A DNA stretch of 64,000 nucleotides, taken from contig CADCJQ010000003.1 in assembly GCA_902801795.1 (NCBI GenBank), positions 20,129 to 84,128 on the forward strand, in the 5' to 3' direction. This document shows, piece by piece, positions 6,063 through 64,000 of this stretch. The notes under the pieces are model-generated. The model saw nothing but the letters and a program-made list of their open reading frames with translations. It did not search any database and was not told the DNA's origin. The stretch is from an uncultured Erysipelotrichaceae bacterium. Its GTDB lineage: Bacteria; Bacillota_I; Bacilli_A; RF39; UBA660. Made by a program: the position numbers and the translations under genes. Numbering within the stretch: the stretch's first letter is position 1; the number at the start of each line of letters is the position of its first letter.

Positions 6063-7593
<1,531 letters not shown>

Positions 7594-7815
7594 ATGGAGT
7601 TAAATATCCGTATCTAGCTATTAAATATTGACTGTATGTTTTGCTTAGTTTTGAGAGATCATTTTTGATTTCTCTAGAAATAGTTCTTTGAAAACTGAAT
7701 AATGTGGTTATATATTCTTAACGAGCGAATATATAACATGCAAATATATTGATTAAGTGTATATTTGTTATAAAATCTCATCAAATTAGGATAGAAATAT
7801 CAAAAAAACAATGGT

Positions 7816-10600
<2,785 letters not shown>

Positions 10601-10676
10601 TGTTTAAATTTGATGAACACATTATTCATGTTTTGAAAGAACTATTTTGAATTTATATTTAATTTGTTAAAAATTT

Positions 10677-10784
10677 CTTAGTGATAATAGCACCAAGGGT
10701 ACACCTGTTCCCATCTCGAACACAGAAGTTAAGCTTGGTTACGCCGAAAATAGTGTATGCAAAAATAGGAAGTCGCTAAGAATT
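10677..10784 (+). rRNA. rrf: 5S ribosomal RNA (boundaries approximate)
   Basis: GTGATAATAGCACCAAGGGTACACCTGTTCCCATCTCGAACACAGAAGTTAAGC is a canonical 5S core. The 3' half is divergent. T-run follows. Confidence 0.75.
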
Positions 10785-30499: not shown

Positions 30500-30639
30500 T
30501 ATTAAAAAAATAAATAGTGTCTTTTAGAGCACTATTTTTATATATAAAAAAATGTGGATTTTTGAGTTTTTTTGTCAAAAGACTAGATAAAAAGTTATAA
30601 ATATGATATATTAAATATGTCTAGAAGATATGAAAGTTA

Positions 30640-30772
30640 GTAGTTTAAAACCGACTAAATATACATTACGGGAGTTCGGAGCATTAATCGGTGTTGAACA
30701 CTTAGTGGAGTTCCTAAGGATCCTAAAGGTTAATTATGAACACCCACCTCGTGACGACCGCGCGGGTTTTAG
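30640..30772 (+). promoter_or_regulatory. structured, GC-enriched 5' leader of the lysozyme gene; candidate riboswitch/attenuator (family unassigned)
   Basis: About 130 nt, markedly more GC-rich than the flanks. Complementary segments ACGGGAGTTCGGAGCA / GTGGAGTTCCTAAGGATCC and a terminator-like GACGACCGCGCGGGTTTT sit just before the RBS of the 30816 gene. Confidence 0.3.
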
Positions 30773-30815
30773 TATATGGCTTTCTATTTTCTAGATTTTA
30801 TTATTTAGGAGAGAT

Positions 30816-37470: not shown

Positions 37471-37539
37471 ATACACGTCCTTCAATACAATATTAAAAAA
37501 TCATAGTTTTCTATGATTTATTTTTTGTGTTTTGTATGG

Positions 37540-37900
37540 TCTACCATAAATTAATTTTACGGCTTAGGTCGAGTAGAGTTTCTCTGAATTCTACCTTAAG
37601 TTACCTATGGGCCATTTCTGTTTAAAGAATTCAATTACCTTGGTAATAACTCGATCACCACTTAGTCCGCACTACAATCTTTATAGTAGAAACATTCTAG
37701 AGGTTTTCCCTGACAAACAGTCATATCCTTATTCGCTTTTGCAAGATTTTTTTCAATAATATCCCAAAATCTCACGCACGACATGTGTTTTATTTACTAC
37801 GACGTGATGAAAGGATACCAATATATGCCATTATATTTTTTCCTTAAATCTAAAATTATATATTCACCCCTATCTGGGCGATAAAAGCAAACATATAAAG
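37540..37900. other. about 360-nt non-coding, relatively GC-richer segment; candidate structured ncRNA or decayed gene
   Basis: No ORF of 60 aa or more on either strand despite lower AT content. The minus strand has only fragmented short frames, including a 40-codon Cys-rich ORF MSCVRFWDIIEKNLAKANKDMTVCQGKPLECFYYKDCSAD. Confidence 0.2.
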
Positions 37901-38105
37901 TGTCATACACAATTAATGGATTTTTAGCCCCATCTTCCTATATTTTGTTTGACTAGAATAATGCACCACACATATAATATTATACTATATTTTATTATTT
38001 ATGTCAAAAAATTAGTATTAGTCAATAATACTTTTTATAATTTTTTTGTTGAATAATATTCGTTTTATTGATATAATAATTAAGAAGAGTAGAGGAGTTG
38101 ATAAT

Positions 38106-39817: not shown

Positions 39818-42373
39818 ATGAAATTAAAAGATGTTGATAAAAGTAAATTATCACCAATGATGGCTCATTATTTAGAGATAAAAGAAAAGTATCCTGATAC
39901 AATTATTTTTTATCGTTTAGGTGATTTTTATGAAATGTTTTTTGAAGATGCAGAATTAGTATCTCATGAACTAGAACTTACATTAACAGGACGTAATGCG
40001 GGACTTGATGAGCGAGCGCCAATGTGTGGTGTACCATATCATGCTTATGAAGGATATATGCAAAAGTTAATTGATCGTGGTTATAAAGTAGCAATTTGTG
40101 AACAATTAGAAGATCCTAAACTTGCTAAAGGAATGGTTGATAGGGATGTAGTTCAAGTTATTACGAAAGGTACTATTTTAGATAATATGTTAGATGAAAA
40201 AAGTAATAATTATTTAGCAAGTATCTATGATTTTGAATATTCTTACGCTCTTACATATGCCGATATTTCAACAGGGGAAGTTAGTACTTTATTATTGGAC
40301 AATGAAAATGATTTATTAAAAGAAATAGTTAATCATAATATTAAAGAATTAATTTGTAATGATGTTATTAATCGTGAAATAATTTATACATTAAAAAATA
40401 TTTATCATATAGTAGTTACCATAACTAATGATTTATGTGATGATAAAGATTATCAATATATTTATGAAGATATAAGTGATATAAGATTAATTACGGGAAT
40501 TAAACATTTACTATCATATATTGTAAGTACTAAAAAAGTTACTTTAAGCCATTTAAAGAAAGCTAATTGTTATTCTGAAAATGAATTTTTACAATTTGAT
40601 ATTCATACCAAAAGAAATTTAGAGTTAACAGAAACCATTAGAGATAATAATAGACAATATTCACTTCTTTGGTTATTAGATAAAACGAAAACAGCGATGG
40701 GAAGTCGCTACTTAAAAAGAAATATTGAATCACCTCTAAGAAACAAAAAAGAAATACTACGTCGTTATGAGATGGTAAGTTTATTTTTAACAGAATTTAT
40801 TCATAAAGAGGAATTATGTAATTTATTAAATGAAGTGTATGACTTGGAAAGATTATGTGGACGTGTTAGTTATGGTAATATTAATGCTCGTGATATGTTA
40901 CAGTTATTACGAAGTTTAAAAGTTTTACCAGAAATAAAAAGTATTTTAAATATGATTCATTATGATAAAGATTTTGATACCTTAGATGAGTTACGAGAAT
41001 TGCTTGATAAAAGTATTAATCCTGATGCGCCCATGACATTACATGACGGTGATTTAATTAAAGTAGGTTATAATAGTGAATTGGATGAACTAAAAAGTGT
41101 TCGTAAAAATAGTAAAGATTTTATTGTTAATATTGAAAATACAGAAAAAGAACGTACCGGTATTAAGAATTTAAAAATTGGCTATAATAAAGTATTTGGT
41201 TATTATATAGAAATTAGTAAAGGAAATATTCCATTAATTAAAGATGAATGGGGTTATATAAGAAAGCAAACATTAACAACAGGTGAACGTTATATAACGG
41301 AAGAATTAAAAGAAAAAGAACAAATTATTTTGGGTGCAGAAGAAAAAATAATAAATCTTGAATATAATTTGTTTATGGAAATAAGAGAAATAACGAAAAA
41401 ATATATTCATAGTTTACAAGATATTAGTATGATAATATCCGAACTTGATATGTTACTTTCTTTTGCAACAGTAGCAGAGACTAATCGCTATGTCAAACCA
41501 GAAATAGTTGATGGTAATGAAGTTTTAATTCTTGATGGACGTCATCCTGTTGTGGAAAAAGTTAGTAGTAATGATTATGTTCCTAATGATATTAAAATGG
41601 ATAAAAATACAGATGTTTTATTAATAACAGGTCCTAATATGGCTGGTAAAAGTACTTATATGCGTCAAATGGCTATTATTGTTATTATGGCTCAAATTGG
41701 TTCTTTTGTACCTTGTAGTTCATGTAAACTTCCACTTTTTGATAAAATCTTTACAAGAATTGGTGCTAGTGATGATTTAGTAAATGGTGAAAGTACCTTT
41801 ATGGTAGAGATGAAAGAAGCTAATCGTGCTTTAATGGATGCAACAAGTAATAGTTTGATTTTATTTGATGAATTAGGTCGTGGTACGGCAACATACGATG
41901 GAATGAGTTTAGCAGAGGCAATCTTAGAATATATTCATGACCATATTCATGCTAAAACCTTATTTTCTACCCATTATCATGAGTTAACAACGATGTCTAA
42001 AAAATTAAAGAAATTACGTAATATTCATGTTTCCGCTAGTGAAGAAAATGGTAATATTACTTTCTTACATAAGATTAAAGATGGGGCGATTGATAAAAGT
42101 TATGGAATTAATGTAGCATCTCTTGCACATCTTCCCCAAGAAGTTATCACCAGAGCTAATGAAATATTAGGCATTTATGAAAGTAAAAATAAGAATAATC
42201 AAAGTAATGTTTTACAAACATCTTTTGATTTTCAAGAAGAAAAAGATGATAAGAAAGATGAAGAAATAATTGAAGAATTAAAGAAAATTAATCCACTTAG
42301 TATAACACCAATTGAAGCATTAAATAAATTATATGAATTAACAGAATTAGTTAAAGAAAAGGATAATAAATAA
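39818..42373 (+). CDS. mutS: DNA mismatch repair protein MutS
   Basis: MMAHYLEIKEKYPDTIIFYRLGDFYEMF (mismatch-binding domain) and Walker A TGPNMAGKSTYMRQ. 851 aa. Confidence 0.95.
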   Translation: MKLKDVDKSKLSPMMAHYLEIKEKYPDTIIFYRLGDFYEMFFEDAELVSHELELTLTGRNAGLDERAPMCGVPYHAYEGYMQKLIDRGYKVAICEQLEDPKLAKGMVDRDVVQVITKGTILDNMLDEKSNNYLASIYDFEYSYALTYADISTGEVSTLLLDNENDLLKEIVNHNIKELICNDVINREIIYTLKNIYHIVVTITNDLCDDKDYQYIYEDISDIRLITGIKHLLSYIVSTKKVTLSHLKKANCYSENEFLQFDIHTKRNLELTETIRDNNRQYSLLWLLDKTKTAMGSRYLKRNIESPLRNKKEILRRYEMVSLFLTEFIHKEELCNLLNEVYDLERLCGRVSYGNINARDMLQLLRSLKVLPEIKSILNMIHYDKDFDTLDELRELLDKSINPDAPMTLHDGDLIKVGYNSELDELKSVRKNSKDFIVNIENTEKERTGIKNLKIGYNKVFGYYIEISKGNIPLIKDEWGYIRKQTLTTGERYITEELKEKEQIILGAEEKIINLEYNLFMEIREITKKYIHSLQDISMIISELDMLLSFATVAETNRYVKPEIVDGNEVLILDGRHPVVEKVSSNDYVPNDIKMDKNTDVLLITGPNMAGKSTYMRQMAIIVIMAQIGSFVPCSSCKLPLFDKIFTRIGASDDLVNGESTFMVEMKEANRALMDATSNSLILFDELGRGTATYDGMSLAEAILEYIHDHIHAKTLFSTHYHELTTMSKKLKKLRNIHVSASEENGNITFLHKIKDGAIDKSYGINVASLAHLPQEVITRANEILGIYESKNKNNQSNVLQTSFDFQEEKDDKKDEEIIEELKKINPLSITPIEALNKLYELTELVKEKDNK

Positions 42374-53642: not shown

Positions 53643-53717
53643 GCCGACTTAGCACAGTGGTAGTGCAACGCATTCGTAACGCGTAGGTCACTGGTTCAAA
53701 TCCGGTAGTCGGCACCA
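53643..53717 (+). tRNA. tRNA-Thr (anticodon CGT)
   Basis: GCCGACTTAGCACAGTGGTAGTGCAACGCATTCGTAACGCGTAGGTCACTGGTTCAAATCCGGTAGTCGGCACCA. Cloverleaf with anticodon loop TTCGTAA. Encoded CCA. Confidence 0.85.
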
Positions 53718-53811
53718 TATTAGTGTGAAACTCGGACACTTTCCGAGATGCAATAAATGAACTAACTCTTTAAAGTTAGTTTTTTTGTGTTTCAGAAAGG
53801 AGTGATGAGTA

Positions 53812-54083
53812 TGTTTAAATTAGAAACTAAAAAACTTACAATAAGTGAATCATTAAGAAAGAAGATTGAAATAATATGTAGTTTTGCAAATGTTAAATAT
53901 GAACTTATAGAAGGTAGTATTATATCAGTTAAAGACACTAATTTAGGTTTTGTTAAGCCACATGTATTAAAAGTTAAAGGAAATGATTATCTTCTATTTG
54001 AAGATACTAAAACAGTTTTTATAAATGGTTATAAAGATAAAATTAAATTAACTGAATTAGAAGAATATCTAAAGAATAATTAA
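53812..54083 (+). CDS. small hypothetical protein (90 aa) preceding the serine recombinase
   Basis: GAAAGGAG RBS. Its 5' end (MFKLE) recurs in the deletion scar at 62783. Confidence 0.4.
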
Positions 54084-54180: not shown

Positions 54181-56061
<1,881 letters not shown>

Positions 56062-56340: not shown

Positions 56341-56377
56341 TAATAAAAACTAGTTTACATACTCGAAAGTGTCAAAT

Positions 56378-56409
56378 ATTATTATTGTTATTATTATTAT
56401 TATTATTAT
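56378..56409. repeat. ATT trinucleotide microsatellite (about 10 units, one interrupted) in the promoter region of the DGR target gene
   Basis: attattattGttattattattattattattatc. The corresponding tract upstream of the second paralog (62936-62961) is shorter. Confidence 0.8.
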
Positions 56410-56422
56410 CACCGCTGGTCAT

Positions 56423-56468
56423 TGTAAAATAATTGGAAATGTAAAATAAATAGTTGAAAAATGTAAAA
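56423..56468 (+). promoter_or_regulatory. tandem direct repeats (TTG-G/A-AAA-n-TGTAAAA) upstream of the target gene; candidate regulator binding sites
   Basis: tgtaaaataattggaaatgtaaaataaatagttgaaaaatgtaaaac. The same architecture is conserved at 62972-63018 before the paralog. Confidence 0.45.
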
Positions 56469-56516
56469 CAATTATTTATAATAATATTGTAAGATTAGAT
56501 GATAGGAGTGACGATT

Positions 56517-58769
56517 ATGATTAAATCAAAAAAACAAATGTTTGTAGTAATTGGAGCATTTGCATTAGTAATGTTATTAGGAAGTATAACATATGCATTT
56601 TTTAATTATACAAGAACTGGAACAGCGAATACAATTAGAGTAGGAAGAATAGCTTTTAATTCATCACAATCAGGAAATATAAATTTAACTAATGCTTTTC
56701 CAATAACAAGTAGTGAAGCAGAAACAGATACAACTAACGCCAAGAGTGTCGCCATAACTGTAACTGGTGATACAGACTATAGTGGTGGAGTAGAATATGT
56801 CGTTACTGCAAGTGATGTTAATATGACAGTAGGAAGTGGAATTAATGCAAAAGAATTGCCACTAGCATTAGAAATATCAGTAACTGGAAATAATAGTAAT
56901 ACATTAGGAACAGAGGAAACAGGTGATTATTATACTAATAGAGATAATTATCAGGTTAGTAAATATAAAATAGAATATGATGGAGAATTAGAAGAAGGAA
57001 GCCATTTATTAGTAGGCTATATTGCGCCAAATACCACAAGTGGAACGGCTGAAGGAGTAGATGGAGTTATTAATATTAAAGCATATATTGATGCAAGTAA
57101 AGTATTAATAAGTGATACCTATGATGGAACAGAGTCAGATAATATGGGAACACCTAATTCATTAGCAGAAGGGAAAACTGTATTTACTACAACTGAATGG
57201 AATAGTATTCAAAGTTCACCATTATCATTTAAATTAAAAGTAGAAGCTAATGAAGGAATATGGGTAGAAGAACCATTAACTTTAAGTCAATCTATAGCAA
57301 GACAAGTAAGTACCGCAAGTTATATAGCAAGTTACGACGATATCATCTCATCAAATCCAACATTTACAACCCAAGATCAAGTATCAACAAGTGCAACAAA
57401 ACAAACTGTTTATTATTATACTGGAAATGAAGCAGCAGCAAATGCTAATGTTTTATTTGCCGGATATTGTTGGCAGGTCATCAGAACTACCGATAATGGT
57501 GGAGTAAGAATGATTTATAATGGAGTAGCCGTAAATAATAAATGTGAAACAACAAGGACAGCTACAAAAGGAATAAATGCAGTCGGTAATGGGACATTGC
57601 AAAGTATGAGTGCAGCTACTCTTTATGGAAGAAGTTATGATTATGACCTAACGACAGGAGAGTTTACTATCGAAAATAGTACTGGTTTGCCAACAAGTTG
57701 GACAACAAATGATAATAATAGTAATGGAACAGAAGATTATAAAGAATTAATAGGAACATATACATGCTTATCAAATTTAGATACATGTAGCACACTTTAT
57801 TATGTAGGAAGTATAAATCAGTCAAATTCTGCTCAAGCTTATGTAGCAAAATACACAATAGGAGATGTAGCACGTTATAGTCAATTAGGAACAAGTGCAT
57901 TTAATTCAAATTATTATAGTCCAGCATTAGTAGGATATATGTTTAACAAAGAATATGACTATAAATCAGGTAGTAAATCTGGGGAATATTATACTAGTGC
58001 AGCATGGGAAAATGGAGCATATGTATTATCAAATGGAAATGGAGGAACAGCCCCTGATGTGACACATCACTATATCTGTGATAGTGATTGTGCAAAAGTA
58101 AGATATTATTATTATGTAAGTGGAAGTAGTCATTACTATATATTACTAGAAAATGGAAAAACAGTAGAAGATGCATTAAAAGAGATGATTAATTATAAAA
58201 CAAATGCAAATGAAATAGATGAAAATATAAATGTATATAATTCGGCAATGAAAGGATATCTAGATAACTGGTATAAAAAGAATTTAACAGCTTATACTAG
58301 TTATCTAGATCAATCATCAGTATATTGTAATGATAGAAGTATAAGAGAATTAGGAGGATGGAATCCAACAAATTCTCCAAGTCTAACAACAACATTACAA
58401 TTCTATCAATATAGTGCAAATAGAGATTTAAACTGTGTAAATGAGTGGGATAGATTTGCTGTGACAAATACTAAAGCAAAATTAACATATCCAATAGGTT
58501 TATTAACTGAACCAGAAAGAAATTTAATGACTGCTAATTTTGCTAAAACAGGACAATATTACTGGGGGGCTTCGCCTAGCAGTTTCAGCGACAACCGTGC
58601 TCGTGTTCGTAGTGTCGATGCTACGGGTGGCCGTAGCGACCCTTCTGTGAGCAATAGTTATGGGGCGCGTGGCGTCGTTTCACTTCGACCTGGCACGAAG
58701 TTAGAAAATGGTACTGGAACATATAATGACCCATATATTGTAGGACCAATAGTTGCAAGAACAAGTTAG
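56517..58769 (+). CDS. DGR target (variable) protein with SipW/TasA-class signal peptide and C-terminal variable region
   Basis: N-terminus MIKSKKQMFVVIGAFALVMLLGSITYAFFNYT resembles TasA/camelysin SipW-cognate signals. The C-terminal 40 codons (WGASPSSFSDNRARVRSVDATGGRSDPSVSNSYGARGVVS) are encoded by the VR, which matches the TR at non-adenine positions. Confidence 0.8.
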   Translation: MIKSKKQMFVVIGAFALVMLLGSITYAFFNYTRTGTANTIRVGRIAFNSSQSGNINLTNAFPITSSEAETDTTNAKSVAITVTGDTDYSGGVEYVVTASDVNMTVGSGINAKELPLALEISVTGNNSNTLGTEETGDYYTNRDNYQVSKYKIEYDGELEEGSHLLVGYIAPNTTSGTAEGVDGVINIKAYIDASKVLISDTYDGTESDNMGTPNSLAEGKTVFTTTEWNSIQSSPLSFKLKVEANEGIWVEEPLTLSQSIARQVSTASYIASYDDIISSNPTFTTQDQVSTSATKQTVYYYTGNEAAANANVLFAGYCWQVIRTTDNGGVRMIYNGVAVNNKCETTRTATKGINAVGNGTLQSMSAATLYGRSYDYDLTTGEFTIENSTGLPTSWTTNDNNSNGTEDYKELIGTYTCLSNLDTCSTLYYVGSINQSNSAQAYVAKYTIGDVARYSQLGTSAFNSNYYSPALVGYMFNKEYDYKSGSKSGEYYTSAAWENGAYVLSNGNGGTAPDVTHHYICDSDCAKVRYYYYVSGSSHYYILLENGKTVEDALKEMINYKTNANEIDENINVYNSAMKGYLDNWYKKNLTAYTSYLDQSSVYCNDRSIRELGGWNPTNSPSLTTTLQFYQYSANRDLNCVNEWDRFAVTNTKAKLTYPIGLLTEPERNLMTANFAKTGQYYWGASPSSFSDNRARVRSVDATGGRSDPSVSNSYGARGVVSLRPGTKLENGTGTYNDPYIVGPIVARTS
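58562..58681 (+). repeat. DGR variable repeat (VR), in frame at the 3' end of the target gene
   Basis: 120 bp aligned gap-free to TR 59039-59158. Of 25 mismatches, 24 fall where TR has A. VR codons are diversified where TR has AAC/AAT. Confidence 0.85.
58682..58701 (+). other. hairpin immediately 3' of VR (IMH-associated stem-loop candidate)
   Basis: acttcg-acctggca-cgaagt directly after the GC-rich block GGGGCGCGTGGCG shared by VR and TR. Confidence 0.4.
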
Positions 58770-59038
58770 TGCCATTACTAATACACTGTTATATAAGTGC
58801 GAAAAACCTTTCGCACTTTAAAAATAAACCATTATCATGCATAATTCATTTAGGAATTATGCATGATTTATTATATAAATAAATATATAAAATATTGAAA
58901 TTAGTTGACACAAAAGAATTGACTTGAATTATGAGATTTGATTAAATATAATTTGTAATTTTGGGTTAAACATCTGTTTAACTTAGGGTTGTGTCATAAA
59001 TTCGTGCTTGTAGGAGCCCTGGGGGGCTTCGCCTAACA

Positions 59039-59158
59039 ATTTCAACAACAACAATGCTAATGTTCGTAATGTCAATACTACAGGTGACAATAACAACAAT
59101 AATGTGAACAATAGTAATGGGGCGCGTGGCGTATTTTCCAAATATAGAATAATATACT
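59039..59158 (+). repeat. DGR template repeat (TR)
   Basis: Intergenic, non-coding 120-bp copy of VR, rich in AAC/AAT triplets. Would read WGASPNNFNNNNANVRNVNTTGDNNNNNVNNSNGARGVFS in the VR frame. All but one difference from VR sit at its adenines. Confidence 0.85.
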
Positions 59159-59314
59159 AGTTTTTATAATGCATGCGTTATGGGTAAAAAGCTAGTTTTC
59201 TTAATTTTTGTGAAACAGATGCAACTCTATGGACAAATGTTCAAAATATATAAACAGTGTAGACTATGCTAACTATTTTTAGTTAGCATAGAAGCTGCTG
59301 TTTTGGGGTGAGAT

Positions 59315-59680
59315 ATGAGGCTAAACAGTGAATTTAAAATATATAATAAAGTAGCTGAATTTAATCGCTATGTAAGAAATACTATTACAAATTTTATACC
59401 AAGTGTTCATCGTGATATCAGAATACATTTACTTGATGAAAATTATTCACTATTACATAATCTTTTATCAGCCAGTTACAATAAAGGAAATATTAGAATT
59501 AAATATATTAGTGAAATGATAGTAAATATATCAATGATTGATTATTTATTAGGTGAGGTATCGGAATTATCAGAAAATAATTCTAAGAAAATTCTTCGAG
59601 CAATAAGAATGCTATCTGAAATAAAGAATATGATATATTCATGGAAAAATAATATCGATAATGGCAAAGAAGAAAATTAG
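59315..59680 (+). CDS. avd: DGR accessory variability determinant (Avd-like small basic helical protein)
   Basis: 121-aa helical, basic protein immediately upstream of, and overlapping, the RT gene. Size and position fit Avd. Sequence similarity to known Avd is not verifiable by eye. Confidence 0.55.
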   Translation: MRLNSEFKIYNKVAEFNRYVRNTITNFIPSVHRDIRIHLLDENYSLLHNLLSASYNKGNIRIKYISEMIVNISMIDYLLGEVSELSENNSKKILRAIRMLSEIKNMIYSWKNNIDNGKEEN

Positions 59681-61136
59681 CAATATATATAATGCACCAA
59701 TAACATTTACTAACATAAATAAGATGTGGAATATTGTCAGGAAGTCATGCAAAAATAAAAGAGGAATTTATGATTTTTCATTAAATAAAAACGCAAATAT
59801 ATATAATATTGGAAAGATATTAAAAGAAAAGAGTTATAAACCATATCCATATCGCTTATTTATGATATTTGAACCAAAACCAAGACTTGTAATGAGTCAG
59901 TGTGTTTATGACAAGATAATAAATCATTTTGTAGCCAATTATTATTTGCTTCCTTATTTAGAGAAAAAATTACTTAACTGTAATGTAGCAACAAGAAAGA
60001 ATATGGGCAGTGATTATGCTATAAAATTGACTAAAAAATATATTAATGAGATTAGAATAAAAAATCCTAATAAAGAGATATATGTCTTGAAAATGGATAT
60101 TAGTAAATATTTTTATACTATTAATCATGAGATACTTCTTAATATGTTAAAACGTGATATTAATGATTTTGATGTAATTAAATTAATAGAAAGTATTATA
60201 AGTGAAACCGATAAATCATATATTAATGACATGGTAGATAAATTAAATAAGCATAATAAAACGGATATTCCACATTATGAAAATAACGTTGGTTTATCTA
60301 TAGGAGCAATGACTAGCCAATTTTTAGCTATTTATTATTTAAATGATTTAGATCATTATATTAAAGAACAATTAAAATGCAAATATTTCATCCGATATAT
60401 GGATGATATTTTAATATTCGATGTTAATTTTGATAAATTAAAAAAATTATGGAAATTAATAGAAAATAAAGTAAATGATTTAAAACTCAATGTAAATCCT
60501 AAAAGTAATATTTTTAGATTAAGTAATGGTGTAATATTTGTAGGTTATAGGTTTAAAATAGATAATTGTGGTTTTAAAATGAAATTTAATAAGAAAACTA
60601 TTAAAAGAATTAATCACAAATTAAAATATTTACAAGAGAATAATATAGTTAAATATTATCGTTCATATGCTAGTTATTATGGTTATTACAAGAGGGTAAG
60701 AAGATATAGTGAGAGGAATTTTAAGATGAAATCTATTGAAAAATATAAAGCTTATAAAGAAAAGTATATGAATTGTATTGTTTTTATTAGAGAAGGAAAG
60801 TTTTATTGCACATTTGTTGATGATGCAATTTTTATATGGAATTTATTTGATTATAAATGGAATAAAAATTCTATTTCTTTTGGAGAATCTGCTTGTAGTA
60901 AAGTATTTGATTATTTGAAGAATAAAAGTATAGGTTATGTAATAGTAAGTAATGATGATATATTTGTTAAAGGTGATAATAAAATATATGAATTATATCT
61001 TGAGGCAGCAAAAATAAATTATGATAGATATTGTAAGAAAAAAGAGATATCATCATTAATTGATAGTATATTAGTAGAAAATATTAATTATTGTGATGAT
61101 ATTATCGATTATTTGAATAAATATAAAAGTAAATAA
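59661..61136 (+). CDS. diversity-generating retroelement reverse transcriptase
   Basis: RT motifs: YVLKMDISKYFYTINHEIL (motif 2), GLSIGAMTSQFLAIYYLNDLD (motif 4 with the DGR-specific [I/L]GxxxSQ in place of QGxxxSP), FIRYMDDILIF (motif 5, YMDD). Confidence 0.9.
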   Translation: MAKKKISNIYNAPITFTNINKMWNIVRKSCKNKRGIYDFSLNKNANIYNIGKILKEKSYKPYPYRLFMIFEPKPRLVMSQCVYDKIINHFVANYYLLPYLEKKLLNCNVATRKNMGSDYAIKLTKKYINEIRIKNPNKEIYVLKMDISKYFYTINHEILLNMLKRDINDFDVIKLIESIISETDKSYINDMVDKLNKHNKTDIPHYENNVGLSIGAMTSQFLAIYYLNDLDHYIKEQLKCKYFIRYMDDILIFDVNFDKLKKLWKLIENKVNDLKLNVNPKSNIFRLSNGVIFVGYRFKIDNCGFKMKFNKKTIKRINHKLKYLQENNIVKYYRSYASYYGYYKRVRRYSERNFKMKSIEKYKAYKEKYMNCIVFIREGKFYCTFVDDAIFIWNLFDYKWNKNSISFGESACSKVFDYLKNKSIGYVIVSNDDIFVKGDNKIYELYLEAAKINYDRYCKKKEISSLIDSILVENINYCDDIIDYLNKYKSK

Positions 61137-61443: not shown

Positions 61444-62637
61444 ATGAAGATAATTCCTAGAGATGAATATTTAAGCAAAATGATTAGGGTAATAAATACA
61501 CCAGATATTAAAGTGTTGACTGGTGTTAGAAGATGTGGTAAGTCAAAATTATTAGAATTGTTTATAGAGTATATTGATAAAAATATTAAAAACAACAATA
61601 TTATTCACATTAATTTTAATGAGAGAAAATATGACGGATTATTAACTGGTGACAAATTATATGATTATATTTCTAATAAATATGTTAAAAATAAAATCAA
61701 TTTTGTTTTAATTGATGAAATTCAAAAATGTGATGGTTTTGAAGATACAATTAATAGTATTCATTCTGAAGAAAAATATAAAATATATATAACTGGTTCA
61801 AATGCATTTTTACTTTCTAGTGATCTAGCTACATTATTTACTGGTAGAACTTTTGAAATTAATATCTATCCTTTTTCATTTGAAGAATACAATAGATATT
61901 TTAATAATCAAAATCATTATTTATCTTTTAATTCATTTATGAATGATGGTGGAATGTCAGGATCATATTTGTACGATAATGTAGAGGATAAAAATCAGTA
62001 TTTAAAGAGCATATATAATACAATGATTTTGCGTGATATTGTTGGAAAGAATAATATTAAAAATGAATCATTACTTAACAAATTAAGTGATTATTTACTT
62101 GATAATATTTCAAATATTACTTCATCGACTAAAATAGAAAATGTCTTGAAAGGTGAATTAGAAACTGGTGATCATAAAACCATATCAAATTATTTAGATT
62201 ATTTGTGCAATGCTTTTGCTTTTTATAGAGTGAGAAGATTTGATATAAAAGGAAAGAGTTTTCTTAAATCGCAAGATAAATATTATTTAGTAGATACTTC
62301 ATTTAGAAGAGCAATCCATGGAAGAAAAGAAGAAGATTATGGCAGAATATTAGAAAATATTGTTGCAGTTGAATTATTAAGACGTGGATATGATATTTAT
62401 GTTGGTACACTATATGAAAAGGAAATAGATTTTGTTGCTATGAAAAGGGATGAACAAATTTATATTCAAGTAGTAGACAATATTGATAATGAAGCAACAA
62501 TGAAAAGAGAAATAACTCCTTTATTAAGCATAAAAGATGGTTATAAAAAGATGATTATTGCCAGATTAAATCATGAAGGATTTATTAAAGATGGTGTAGA
62601 AATAATTGACATTTCGGACTGGTTATTAAATAAGTAA
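61444..62637 (+). CDS. AAA-family ATPase (AAA_14 + DUF4143 architecture)
   Basis: Walker A GVRRCGKSKL. Walker B VLIDEIQ. C-terminal DUF4143-like region. About 400 aa, typical for this widespread family. Confidence 0.65.
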   Translation: MKIIPRDEYLSKMIRVINTPDIKVLTGVRRCGKSKLLELFIEYIDKNIKNNNIIHINFNERKYDGLLTGDKLYDYISNKYVKNKINFVLIDEIQKCDGFEDTINSIHSEEKYKIYITGSNAFLLSSDLATLFTGRTFEINIYPFSFEEYNRYFNNQNHYLSFNSFMNDGGMSGSYLYDNVEDKNQYLKSIYNTMILRDIVGKNNIKNESLLNKLSDYLLDNISNITSSTKIENVLKGELETGDHKTISNYLDYLCNAFAFYRVRRFDIKGKSFLKSQDKYYLVDTSFRRAIHGRKEEDYGRILENIVAVELLRRGYDIYVGTLYEKEIDFVAMKRDEQIYIQVVDNIDNEATMKREITPLLSIKDGYKKMIIARLNHEGFIKDGVEIIDISDWLLNK

Positions 62638-62739
62638 TATGTTATAATTTTATTAGTTAGTAAATTTATTGCTAACATTAATTTGGCAATTGGTTATGGA
62701 ACCTCCACCCAATTGGCACCATAATGATTTTTACTAACT

Positions 62740-62905
62740 AGAAATAGTTAGTTTTTTTGTGTTTCAGAGAGGAGTGATGAATATGTTTAAATTAGAAAAT
62801 GGAGAATATTTTTCTAATGAAGGAGATATTCCAATTAGAATAATATTAATAGATGCTTGAAAACTTGAACGTGATAATAAAATAAGGTTAAATAATTAAA
62901 AAATA
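62740..62905 (+). pseudogene. deletion scar: 5' end of the small ORF fused to the 3' end of the serine recombinase gene (second, degraded cassette)
   Basis: agttagtttttttgtgtttcagagaggagtgatgaatatgtttaaattagaaa matches 53777-53826. It then joins sequence matching recombinase codons about 570-600 (tctaat..gatattccaattagaataat..ttaatagatg...cttgaac.tgataataaaataag). Fused [28 protein letters not shown] stops at 62860. Confidence 0.65.
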
Positions 62906-62935
62906 AAAAAGATGGTAAAAAAAGTATTCATCTAA

Positions 62936-62961
62936 ATTATTATTATTATAATTATTATTAT
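62936..62961. repeat. ATT microsatellite, shorter and interrupted, upstream of the paralog
   Basis: attattattattataattattattatc, homologous in position to 56378-56409. Confidence 0.7.
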
Positions 62962-62971
62962 CGCTGTCTAT

Positions 62972-63018
62972 TGTAAAATGTTTGAAAATGTAAAAGAAAT
63001 GTTTGAAAACTGTAAGTA
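62972..63018 (+). promoter_or_regulatory. conserved TGTAAAA/TTGAAAA direct-repeat array upstream of the paralog
   Basis: ttgtaaaatgtttgaaaatgtaaaagaaatgtttgaaaactgtaagt parallels 56423-56468. Confidence 0.45.
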
Positions 63019-63072
63019 ATTATTATATAATTACATTATAAGATATTTAATGATAGAAGAGGAGTGGTAATA

Positions 63073-64000
63073 ATGATTAAATCAAGAAAACAAATGCTCA
63101 TTGTAATTGGTGTATTTGCATTAGTAATGCTATTAAGTACTGTAACTTATGCCTTTTTTAACTATACTCGTACAGGTGCAGCCAATACTGTTAGTGTAGG
63201 AAGAATAAGTTTTGTAACAAGACAAACAAAAACAATTAGTTTAAATAATTTATTCCCTATTGATCCAACCGATACAGAAGCAATGGCTGATGAAACAAAA
63301 GTAGGTACAGTAGAAATTGAAATTGAAGGAGATACTGATTATGTAGATGGTGTAGAATATTTAGTTTCTAGTGAAAATACAAATATTTATACAACAACAG
63401 GAAAAGTAGTTCCAATTAGTTTAGATGTAGCAGTAACTAATTTAGGAACATCTAGCAACAACTATTTTACAGCAAGAGAAGATAAAAATGCTACAATTTA
63501 TAAGAAATTAGTAGGTGATACATTAGTAGGTGACCAAATGCTATTAGTAGGATTTATTAAACCTAATACAACAAGTGGACAAGCCGAAGGAGTTAATGGT
63601 AAATTAACTATTAAGGCATATTTAGATAAAAATAAAATATTAATAAGTGATACCTATGATGGAACAGAATCAGATAATATGGGAACCCCAAACTCTATGG
63701 CAGAAGGTAAAACAGTATTAACAACAACGGATTGGAATGCGCTTCAGGCTTCTCCAATCACCTTCCAAATAAAAGTAGAAGCAAATGAAGGAATCTGGGT
63801 AAAAGGTTCTCTTGAAGAAATAATGAAACAAGAAAACTTTGATACTACTAAAAATAGAGGAATATTAGATAATGAACAAAGTGAATTTGTAAGTGAGCAG
63901 GAACAGAAAATGATGCATATCCAATTGTTTATTATCGAGGAGCAGTAGAAGATAATAATGTTGTATTCAATAATAAATGCTGGAAAGCAGTAAGAACAAC
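63073..64000 (+). CDS. paralog of the DGR target protein (SipW/TasA-type signal), with apparent frameshift near 63900; continues beyond window
   Basis: MIKSRKQMLIVIGVFALVMLLSTVTYAFFNYTRTGAANTVSVGRISF, then blocks shared with 56517..58769 (TVEIEIEGDTDYVDGVEYLVS, LISDTYDGTESDNMGTPNS, KVEANEGIWV). After about 63897 homology continues in another frame (YYRGAVEDNNVVFNNKCWKAVRTT, cf. YYYTGNEAAANANVLFAGYCWQVIRTT). Confidence 0.6.

Follow-up and report, generated by a model that had tools for sequence, protein, structure and literature searches.

A chromosomal diversity-generating retroelement of an uncultured gut bacterium whose reverse transcriptase carries a fused MutS-like module

The prototype of the diversity-generating retroelements (DGRs) is that of the Bordetella phage BPP-1, in which the genes are arranged as mtd-avd-TR-brt, the target is a tail fibre and the reverse transcriptase (RT), bRT, has 328 aa. 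In the Bordetella phage DGR a hairpin after VR is required. Other DGRs combine Avd with an accessory module that resembles domain I of MutS, i.e. those of Architecture D (Wu et al. 2018, PMC5758913), the Legionella DGR, and the Bfr, Bth and Bun DGRs of Bacteroides (10.1101/2024.11.15.621889). The TvpA DGR of Treponema denticola represents an HRDC-containing architecture (PMC5758913).

The stretch of DNA analysed here (64,000 nucleotides, the window) carries a true and complete DGR in the chromosome of an uncultured gut bacterium. All features of the cassette given below lie on the + strand, and the target ORF, avd and the RT ORF are all intact. Like BPP-1, the element shows adenine-specific transfer from TR to VR, an RT core homologous to bRT with an IGxxxSQ-type motif and YMDD, a small basic Avd and a GC-rich, IMH-like 3' boundary; the RNA elements are also of the same kinds, namely a duplex that brackets TR, a stem of about 9 bp 3' of TR (9-10 bp in the window) and a stem-loop followed by As. 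The differences are that the order is target-TR-avd-RT instead of target-avd-TR-RT, that the RT has a fused 146-aa module (Msl) which bRT lacks, and that the element is chromosomal and its target is a bacterial secreted protein. There is no HRDC gene as in the TvpA architecture. A preliminary description of the locus had called the order VR-TR-avd-RT non-canonical, but it recurs in the close clade of RT relatives and is the norm there. It had also stressed that a surface protein rather than a tail fibre is targeted; the secreted or surface nature of the protein is upheld, but this is not unusual, as cellular surface targets are common in known DGRs. Adenine-biased TR/VR pairs were found in 46 of 80 related loci. 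Apart from the MutS-like module fused to the RT, nothing sets the element off from the known class to which it belongs.

VR occupies 58562..58681, i.e. codons 683-721 of the 750-aa target protein, and exact alignment confirmed the position given previously. TR is intergenic, 120 nt long with 40 adenines, and lies at 59019..59138. It had been placed 20 nt away, at 59039-59158, where 98 of 120 positions mismatch VR; likewise, the distance from the end of VR to the start of TR is 337 nt (457 nt from start to start) and not 357 bp. The remaining counts agree with the exact ungapped alignment: the repeat has 120 nt and 25 mismatches, 24 of which fall on TR adenines (15 A>G, 7 A>C and 2 A>T), the single other being T>G. 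The adenine bias is thus upheld when mismatches are tallied by TR base (hypergeometric P = 1.2e-13 for 24 of 25 on 40 adenines among 120 positions), and an independent repeat search of the window returned the same pair. The diversified sites span 58579 to 58676. TR is rich in AAC and AAT as described (10 AAT and 7 AAC codons in frame), and adenine substitution cannot turn any of its codons into a stop. By codon position of the VR frame, 20 adenines are at position 1, 18 at position 2 and 2 at position 3. TR has a capacity of about 10^24 DNA and 10^22 protein variants.

The same pattern is conspicuous between strains. The VR alleles of four strains vary at 36 of 40 A columns vs 4 of 80 non-A columns (Fisher P = 1.3e-21). 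TR is identical at 119-120 of 120 positions in the window and the three other strains, and one strain keeps this match though its TR flanks are only 83-89 % identical. Between the window and locus L005, identity is 148/150 upstream of VR, 94/120 within VR and 86/88 downstream. The VR heterogeneity that had been proposed as a check is therefore present: strains differ chiefly at TR-adenine sites, with TR and the immediate flanks nearly identical. The sole non-A polymorphism of TR (T/C, position 100) reappears in each strain's own VR. Among 47 homologues, A-codon columns have an entropy of 3.06 bits vs 1.18 for non-A VR codons (P = 1e-7), so that the variable columns coincide with TR codons containing A. 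We note that the compared target genes are diverged alleles (about 80 % identical over the 600 nt upstream), therefore some of the VR differences may be old. Moreover, two other assemblies match the window sequence at 100 % identity, VR included, and a second strain has one VR common to four samples. No heterogeneity among reads or inside a sample was seen, and activity is therefore evident only on the between-strain time-scale.

The 3' boundary of VR is an IMH-like block (58662..58681). Its GC-rich 14-mer GGGGCGCGTGGCGT is identical in TR and occurs in the window only at 58662 and 59119 (0 expected by chance); it is followed by CGTTTC in VR and ATTTTC in TR. The T in TR (59134) and the G in VR (58677) are a fixed difference in four of four strains, and a G versus A/T discriminator is likewise visible in family loci. 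This block presumably works as the IMH. A small hairpin is found further 3' (58684..58703, ACTTCG-8 nt-CGAAGT), with a DNA fold of -5.5 kcal/mol in the window (z = -2.2). It was not found in L012 or five other family loci (z -0.75 to +1.1), and the VR of L012 is diversified despite the missing hairpin. The shared block had been taken together with the hairpin as fitting an IMH; the block stands, but the hairpin is peculiar to the window strain and, unlike in BPP-1, is not conserved in the family.

The avd gene (59315..59680), whose last 20 nt overlap the RT ORF, encodes, as noted earlier, an Avd-sized basic protein (121 aa, pI 9.15). It matches bAvd (PF22296, E = 6e-4, profile positions 4-106 of 107), NF033474 (E = 1e-4) and phrog_3206 'Avd protein of DGR' (E = 8e-8), every match falling below the curated cut-offs; bAvd is matched by 6 of 17 orthologues in the family (best 4.9e-6). 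The profile returned nothing against PDB by sequence. The consistent match over the full profile length suggests, tentatively and at the sequence level, that the product is Avd. The RT ORF (59661..61136) consists of a DGR RT core (59661..60695, aa 1-345) and a C-terminal module. The reported motifs are present, i.e. SIGAMTSQ at aa 213-220 (GAMTSQ at aa 215) and YMDD at aa 246-249. The core matches RVT_1 (E = 4.7e-15) and phrog_1423 (E = 1.6e-75), and the best PDB sequence match of the RT is Bordetella bRT 8ub7 (E = 2.9e-22, aa 17-339). The RT groups with DGR RTs, in agreement with the adenine-biased pairs of its relatives.

The target gene (56517..58769) encodes an acidic protein (750 aa, pI 4.8), secreted or located at the surface. 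The 756 aa given previously correspond to the longest ORF, from 56499, but the most likely start is the ATG at 56517, with AGGAG 8 nt upstream; the 750-aa form is protein record P0167. The N-terminus is a hydrophobic signal/anchor, for which the proposed TasA/SipW type finds matches, but only sub-threshold ones (E 0.01-0.09). The N-domain (aa 1-255) is also present in the downstream paralogue, and the C-terminal 495 aa are beta-rich and terminate in an enlarged C-type-lectin-fold domain (AF2 pLDDT 94.7). A CLec/FGE-like fold had been expected here, and the C-type-lectin fold obtained matches TvpA and Mtd, which are established variable proteins of DGRs. VR forms its last beta-strands (model residues 428-466). 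Neither a peptidase domain nor an HExxH motif is present in the target, in contrast to the IgAse of Thomasclavelia ramosa, a metzincin peptidase. No sequence-level similarity to the N-terminal domain of IgAse (PDB 9qa6, PMC12237041) was detectable, and that domain, unlike the target, bears no sign of DGR diversification.

A terminator-like 14-bp hairpin downstream of the target stop codon (58834..58867) probably separates the target transcript from that of TR-avd-RT; the consensus scan gave 4 terminator-like sites vs 0.7 expected. Just 5' of the point where conservation of the TR RNA begins there is a promoter-like site (TTGAAT-17-TATAAT, 58924..58952, 10/12 match), and -10-like boxes are at the equivalent place in family loci; the call is weak because the AT-rich sequence shows no enrichment of such sites. 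The RNA has several covarying helices. In hairpin H0 (58965..58982, GTTAAAC-ATCT-GTTTAAC), 86 % of cells are paired over 19 loci, with compensatory changes in 4 of 7 pairs. The 5' arm of a long-range duplex (58986..58995, GGGTTGTGTC) pairs with 59218-59227 and so brackets TR; here 99.5 % are paired (19 loci) and 8 of 10 pairs are compensatory, vs 28-50 % paired in slid controls. In the RNA of the Bordetella DGR, its analogue is the 'cPRT Stop' duplex (10.1101/2023.10.23.563531). Stem P1, just 3' of TR (59157..59195, CTAGTTTTT / AAAAAGCTAG, one bulged G), encloses conserved ATAA and TATGG(T)GA motifs. It is 93.6 % paired with 7 of 9 pairs compensatory (10 of 10 over 55 copies), and a search with covariance model R1 gives one hit per TR across the family. 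P1 is a candidate Avd/RT-binding stem; the region that it closes is conserved and about 20-40 nt long, whereas the Bordetella stem has a tetraloop. The conserved 3' block (59210..59246) comprises the near-invariant GTGAAACAG, the 3' arm of the duplex, TCTATGG, a hairpin and an A-run; for the hairpin (GGAC/GTTC, 59231-59242) covariation was seen by eye only (GAAC/GTTC, AAGC/GCTT, GGAT/ATCC, TGAGT/ACTCA). The helices are of the types known from the Bordetella RNA, which have also been predicted for 207 other DGRs (10.1101/2023.10.23.563531), and the window copy keeps them intact.

We regard it as highly probable that this is a chromosomal DGR acting by mutagenic retrohoming, a reading directly supported by the adenine-specific relation of TR and VR, its recurrence in strains and relatives, the protein folds and the RNA covariation. 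In the mechanism that we infer, including transcript ends, RNP contacts, priming and present activity, a transcript would begin near 58960 and hold TR within the structured RNA scaffold, to which RT and Avd would bind. TR would be copied to cDNA with misincorporation opposite adenines only, and the cDNA would replace VR at the 3' end of the target gene, with the GC-rich IMH as 3' limit. Such replacement would recode at most 21 Asn/Asp/Thr/Ser codons in the last strands of the lectin fold and thereby might alter the specificity for a putative ligand.

A dormant or decayed DGR, once active and with recognisable parts, whose VR is no longer diversified in this strain, would agree with the identical VR in three assemblies of the window strain and the common VR of four sister-strain samples, but assemblies are consensus sequences and would mask minority variants. 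Moreover, every ORF is intact, the catalytic YMDD and the scaffold helices are retained, TR is strongly conserved even beside diverged flanks, and a TR polymorphism that arose after divergence has already been transferred to VR. We consider dormancy improbable.

It is still less probable, indeed very unlikely, that the DGR belongs to a phage or mobile element and diversifies a receptor-binding protein as in BPP-1. Directly upstream, next to tRNA-Thr (53643-53717), there is a large serine recombinase (54181-56061, phrog_95 'integrase', E = 1.7e-114), and the genes 3' of the cassette vary by strain. Against this, there are no phage structural genes close by, the loci of the window (rRNA operon, 6S RNA, OLE RNA, MutS, RNase R, PNPase) mark it as housekeeping chromosome, and the target has an N-terminal signal/anchor and shares its N-domain with the neighbouring paralogue. 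The phage collection contained no RT spanning at least 80 % of the query, and phage DGR RTs match nothing but the core (about 30 % identity). An ENA contig 100 % identical to the window (L003) has the same PNPase-tRNA-recombinase-target synteny, and the recombinase-target-DGR order is found again in a second strain (L006). A defence-associated, retron or group II intron RT beside an ordinary partial gene duplication has a negligible probability. NCBIfam and PADLOC gave generic or sub-threshold matches of this kind (group II intron RT, Drt3a, UG classes), but SIGAMTSQ is present, bRT is the top structural-database match, an Avd-like gene adjoins the RT, and Rfam finds neither intron RNA domains nor retron ncRNA. 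Ordinary divergence cannot yield adenine-specific mismatches (P = 1e-13) that recur in 46 related loci, and together with the VR alleles of the strains these effectively refute this reading.

The C-terminal extension of the RT (60696..61136, aa 346-491) has about 146 aa, rather than the 130 or so given earlier. This extension is a MutS-like (Msl) accessory module joined to the RT, in which domain I of MutS is present in diverged form. It consists of the MutS domain I fold (about aa 358-439) and a long helical hairpin. When its GKFYCTF is aligned to GDFYELF of MutS, the equivalent of Phe36 is kept (F381) and that of Glu38 is Cys. Since the Glu of the MutS Phe-X-Glu is missing, MutS-like mismatch recognition is not assured. 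In a DGR acting by retrohoming, Msl, keeping the mismatch-intercalating Phe, would most likely bind the densely mismatched heteroduplex of cDNA and VR; it may shield the heteroduplex from the full-length host MutS, encoded in the window at 39818-42373, or bias resolution to the new strand. In Bacteroides, deletion of mutS raises retrohoming 5-10-fold (10.1101/2024.11.15.621889).

Along its entire length, with E down to 1e-39, the module has homologues among stand-alone proteins of some 135 aa that are located in DGR cassettes of sister lineages, e.g. VR-msl-TR-avd-RT in L093. Likened by description to the Msl of Legionella and Bacteroides, it differs in being fused to the RT C-terminus instead of encoded by a separate gene. 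Wu et al. (2018, PMC5758913, 'RT genes') had earlier pointed out a weak MutS_I motif in three DGR RTs whose C-terminal extension, compared by description, is of about 150 aa as in the window. In comparison with these three, the RT-Msl fusion clade is large: it includes 893 clusters at E <= 1e-5, and among the best 120 nearly all have 485-515 aa.

The variable region (VR) and the template region (TR) of this diversity-generating retroelement (DGR) are two copies of a 120-nt sequence. The VR (58562-58681) spans codons 683-721 of the 750 codons of the target gene and thus lies at the 3' end of the target ORF (56499/56517-58769). The TR (59019-59138) is non-coding and is found in the 545-nt intergenic stretch between the target ORF and an ORF of 121 amino acids, the putative avd (59315-59680), which is overlapped by the reverse transcriptase (RT) ORF of 491 amino acids (59661-61136). 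All these features are co-directional. The preliminary description had placed the TR at 59039-59158, where the two 120-mers are unalignable (98 mismatches in 120 positions); when the copies are anchored on their common 15-mer GGGGGGCTTCGCCTA, the offset between VR and TR is 457 nt. Once the coordinates are corrected the earlier tally is exact, i.e. there are 120 aligned nucleotides, no gaps and 25 mismatches, 24 of which fall on TR adenines. As 40 of the 120 TR positions are adenines, the hypergeometric probability is P = 1.2e-13. The changes from TR to VR are 15 A>G, 7 A>C and 2 A>T, plus one T>G at 59134. The same pair was also recovered by an independent repeat search of the window. When the TR is read in the VR frame, AAT is used as a codon 10 times and AAC 7 times, and codon positions 1 and 2 together take up 38 of the 40 adenines. 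The previous statement that no stop codon can be reached by adenine substitution is borne out, and the theoretical repertoire of the TR is approximately 10^24 DNA and 10^22 protein sequences.

The diversification of the VR was investigated by comparing strains, using consensus assemblies, so the results refer to the between-strain scale. Four contigs with identical RT and Avd (L001-L004) are either 100 % identical to the window or lack the VR, and are uninformative in this respect. Three further strains were found in other metagenomes via their near-identical RTs, one in four samples (L005-L008), the second as L010/L011 and the third as L012. Their TRs are identical to that of the window at 119-120 of 120 positions, and TR adenines account for 27/28, 20/22 and 14/17 of their VR/TR mismatches. 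In L010 the TR is conserved in this way although the VR-TR spacer is only 83 %, and the avd/RT region 89 %, identical to the window. The VRs of the four strains, in turn, share only 75-80 % pairwise identity. Forty VR columns vary among the strains, and it is conspicuous that 36 of the 40 TR-adenine columns are variable, as opposed to 4 of the 80 others (Fisher P = 1.3e-21). The variability is sharply confined: between the window and L005, 148 of 150 nt are identical before the VR, 94 of 120 within it and 86 of 88 after it. The sole TR polymorphism at a non-adenine is at TR position 100 (T in the window, C in the other strains), and the base at this position is reproduced in each strain's own VR, which is a signature of information flow from TR to VR after the strains diverged. 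The same tendency is seen on a larger scale: in 47 distant homologues of the target, the columns that correspond to A-containing TR codons have an entropy of 3.06 bits, as compared to 1.18 bits for the non-A codons of the VR and 1.54 bits for the remaining columns of the lectin domain (P = 1e-7). We conclude that the locus is a genuine DGR and a complete one, and that it was active at least over the period in which the strains diverged.

The candidate IMH, i.e. the GC-rich 3' boundary of the VR, consists of the 14-mer GGGGCGCGTGGCGT, which occurs in the window only in the VR and TR copies, followed by a VR-specific G where the TR has T. This difference, at TR position 116 (59134), is fixed in all strains, and the VR-specific G is seen across the family too; the position would mark the 3' limit of transfer. 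A hairpin directly after the VR had also been regarded as part of the IMH. It folds modestly in the window strain (z = -2.2), is destroyed in L012 and is absent from other members of the family, which rules it out as a conserved IMH feature.

The target protein has no family in Pfam, NCBIfam or PHROG, even at E <= 10, and its N-terminal 60-90 residues give only sub-threshold matches to TasA/camelysin. Variable residues of DGRs are typically shown on a C-type-lectin (or Ig) fold. Such a fold was predicted for this protein from the outset, and the AF2 model of residues 256-750 (pLDDT 94.7, pTM 0.93) agrees with that expectation: the VR forms the last strands of the modelled fold, in which the target is like Mtd and TvpA. 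The lectin fold of the target is enlarged and has a structural match in the IgA peptidase of T. ramosa (N-terminal domain), which hints at possible ligands of such diversified gut surface proteins.

The RT matches RVT_1 (E = 4.7e-15) and phrog_1423 (E = 1.6e-75), and carries the motifs SIGAMTSQ (aa 213-220) and YMDD (aa 246-249), corresponding to the DGR-type motif 4 [ILV]GxxxSQ and YxDD. Its best match among PDB sequences is the RT of the Bordetella phage DGR, bRT (8ub7, E = 2.9e-22, aa 17-339). In other words, a DGR-type RT does accompany the TR, as had been recognized earlier from the sequence. Avd proteins are small, basic accessory proteins that form a four-helix bundle, and the putative Avd (121 aa, pI 9.15) is matched over the full profile length but below threshold by PF22296 (bAvd; 20.7 bits, cut-off 40), by NF033474 (22.6 bits, cut-off 80) and by phrog_3206 'Avd protein of DGR' (E = 8e-8). 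The bAvd match is also present in 6 of 17 putative Avd orthologues from related loci; a search of PDB sequences with the Avd profile gave no match.

The flanks of the TR are strongly conserved in related loci, and contain helices that were evaluated over 19 loci, with slid controls giving 28-50 % paired cells. An upstream hairpin, H0 (58965-58982), is paired in 86 % of cells with compensatory changes in 4 of 7 pairs; a long-range duplex (58986-58995 with 59218-59227) is 99.5 % paired with 8 of 10 compensatory pairs; and a third helix, P1 (59157-59195), is 93.6 % paired with 7 of 9. In a covariance-model search, P1 showed compensatory changes in 10 of 10 pairs over 55 copies. On the 3' side of P1 there are a near-invariant GUGAAACAG and UCUAUGG, followed by a small hairpin and a run of A. 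A pairing of the upstream CTGTTTAAC with the downstream GTGAAACAG was considered as the TR-bracketing element and rejected, as the upstream segment forms the local H0 instead. A search of Rfam found no family at this scaffold. It is similar in kind to the Bordetella DGR RNA, where the cPRT-Stop duplex pairs sequences upstream and downstream of the TR, a stem-loop of about 9 bp 3' of the TR is proposed to bind Avd, and a stem-loop is followed by adenosines. Such RNA elements have been reported for Bordetella and predicted in 207 other DGRs (10.1101/2023.10.23.563531); backed by strong covariation, the RNA described here carries the Bordetella cryo-EM model over to Bacillota and another gene order. 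A separate TR-avd-RT transcript is weakly suggested by terminator-like hairpins that follow the target gene, together with a site resembling a promoter (58924-58952). We also note a perfect 10-bp hairpin, ATGCTAACTA-TTTT-TAGTTAGCAT (59266-59289), between the TR RNA element and the start codon of avd, which might act as an attenuator or a processing site, or might form the 3' end of the TR RNA.

To our knowledge, prokaryotes have no natural system of targeted protein hypermutation other than DGRs, which are under development as tools of continuous evolution. Although the present locus reveals no new principle, it offers a clean and complete example of a DGR from a clade of uncultured gut Bacilli that is large and unstudied. 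The RT family comprises 893 clusters, and among the best 120 nearly all RTs are 485-515 aa long. Within species-representative genomes the hosts are uncultured gut Bacilli (MAGs labelled Erysipelotrichaceae, 'Tenericutes' or 'Mycoplasma'), the closest RT is 58 % identical, and shorter relatives without the C-terminal extension occur in Saccharibacteria and Clostridia. The phage collection contained no record of an RT carrying the extension. Self-comparison revealed an A-biased TR/VR pair in 46 of 80 RT-related loci. Throughout the close clade the elements follow one another as VR, 300-450 nt, TR, avd and RT; the gene order, previously called non-canonical, is therefore a trait of the clade. 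In some relatives a single avd-RT pair is preceded by 3-5 TR units in tandem, and the conserved RNA element comes after every one of these units. Three of these arrays include one unit that is nearly free of adenine (2-5 % A versus 24-29 % in its sisters; L029:820-953, L031:1750-1882 and L021:795-925) and keeps the TR-type 5' and 3' ends as well as the downstream RNA element. Such a unit is possibly a former TR copy that turned into a homing target, with irreversible loss of its adenines, or possibly a deliberately non-mutable template.

The C-terminal extension of the RT (residues 346-491), which had been called non-canonical, is a MutS-like (Msl) module. Residues 359-404 pass the Pfam MutS_I threshold, and in phmmer and BLASTP alignments the RT sequence GKFYCTF corresponds to GDFYE[LM]F of MutS. 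The module has the fold of the MutS mismatch-recognition domain I. It is not a bona fide MutS, since it contains domain I only, out of domains I-V with the ATPase. Of the Phe-X-Glu mismatch motif, the module retains the intercalating Phe, which is conserved to at least 90 % in the family, and the next Tyr is invariant, whereas the Glu is replaced (GKFYCTF versus GDFYEMF in the MutS of the host). When 1.84 billion representatives were searched exhaustively, 166 relatives of the module were obtained, none of them a genuine MutS; they comprise fusions to an RT (about 470-515 aa) and many proteins of 130-140 aa that stand alone. One of the stand-alone relatives, P0294 (E = 8e-23), is located between target and TR in a cassette of a sister lineage with the order VR, msl, TR, RNA element, avd and short RT; in the window the module shares its cassette with avd as well, adjoining it as a fusion to the RT. 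The MutS_I match, the retained Phe and the stand-alone relatives in cassettes indicate that the extension is the Msl of Wu et al. 2018 in fused form. The Msl of that study is a separate small gene of 112-283 aa, whereas here it is part of the RT polypeptide; the same authors mentioned a weak MutS_I motif in three DGR RT extensions (PMC5758913), and the literature that we searched contained no mention of such a motif in RT extensions beyond theirs. This kind of DGR is already known and the RT-Msl fusion was briefly noted before; the window DGR is a member of a large clade, so far uncharacterised, with Msl-RT fusions.

The fusion bears on the question of how mismatch-rich retrohoming intermediates escape the host MutS, and the interest of the locus lies mainly in this testable link. 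The gene for a full-length MutS with domains I-V and GDFYEMF is found 17 kb before the DGR, on its upstream side (39818-42373); the protein is only 30 % identical to the Msl module over 53 aa. Its presence means that the host probably has a mismatch repair system which the DGR heteroduplex must escape. In Bacteroides, MutS limits retrohoming 5-10-fold (10.1101/2024.11.15.621889). We tentatively propose, with more doubt than confidence, that the RT-tethered Msl is a built-in anti-mismatch-repair device. It would enter the target together with the cDNA, and its intercalating Phe would occupy the A-site mismatches that are densely spaced along the cDNA:VR heteroduplex. Having neither the Glu, the clamp nor the ATPase of MutS, it would block the host MutS, which would thereby be kept from restoring the parental VR. 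If true, this would account for the ability of DGRs to evade the 'all-or-nothing' reversal by MutS that is known from Bacteroides, and the fusion clade would be the simplest system for testing the idea of an Msl shield. As Msl and RT form one polypeptide, a simple truncation or an F381A mutation can be used to test the role of Msl.

The surroundings of the cassette are ordinary chromosome, with a complete rRNA operon (6064-10781, + strand), 6S RNA (30615-30801, + strand), OLE (ornate large extremophilic) RNA (37520-37985, - strand, 228 bits), MutS, RNase R and PNPase. Closer to the DGR, a tRNA-Thr(CGT) gene (53643-53717) is followed by an ORF of 98 aa and then, directly upstream of the target, by a large serine recombinase (54181-56061; Resolvase, Recombinase and Zn ribbon; phrog_95 'integrase'). 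The recombinase may mark an integrated island or act on repeated surface-protein cassettes. Directly downstream of the RT there is an AAA_14/DUF4143 ATPase (61444-62637), which matches PDC-S01, a candidate defence family of PADLOC (E = 6.9e-144). The ATPase gene comes after the DGR in L001-L008, and other genes take its place in L010 and L012. The stretch 62733-63948 is a decayed direct duplicate of a small ORF, the 3' end of the recombinase, the promoter and the N-domain of the surface protein. Its segments 62733-62798, 62790-62890 and 62937-63805 match 53761-53826 (89 %), 55835-55935 inside the recombinase gene (82 %) and 56388-57270 (68 %), respectively. The paralogue encoded here (63073-63948) is 55 % identical to the first 255 aa of the target, diverges after the N-domain and ends at 291 aa, and the region as a whole resembles an array of variable cassettes for surface proteins. 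Both the target gene and the paralogue have an (ATT)n tract upstream of their promoter region (56371-56412 and 62923-62964), and these tracts could support slipped-strand phase variation of expression. Finally, the presence of OLE RNA in a gut-associated Bacilli-like genome of 27 % GC may be of separate interest.
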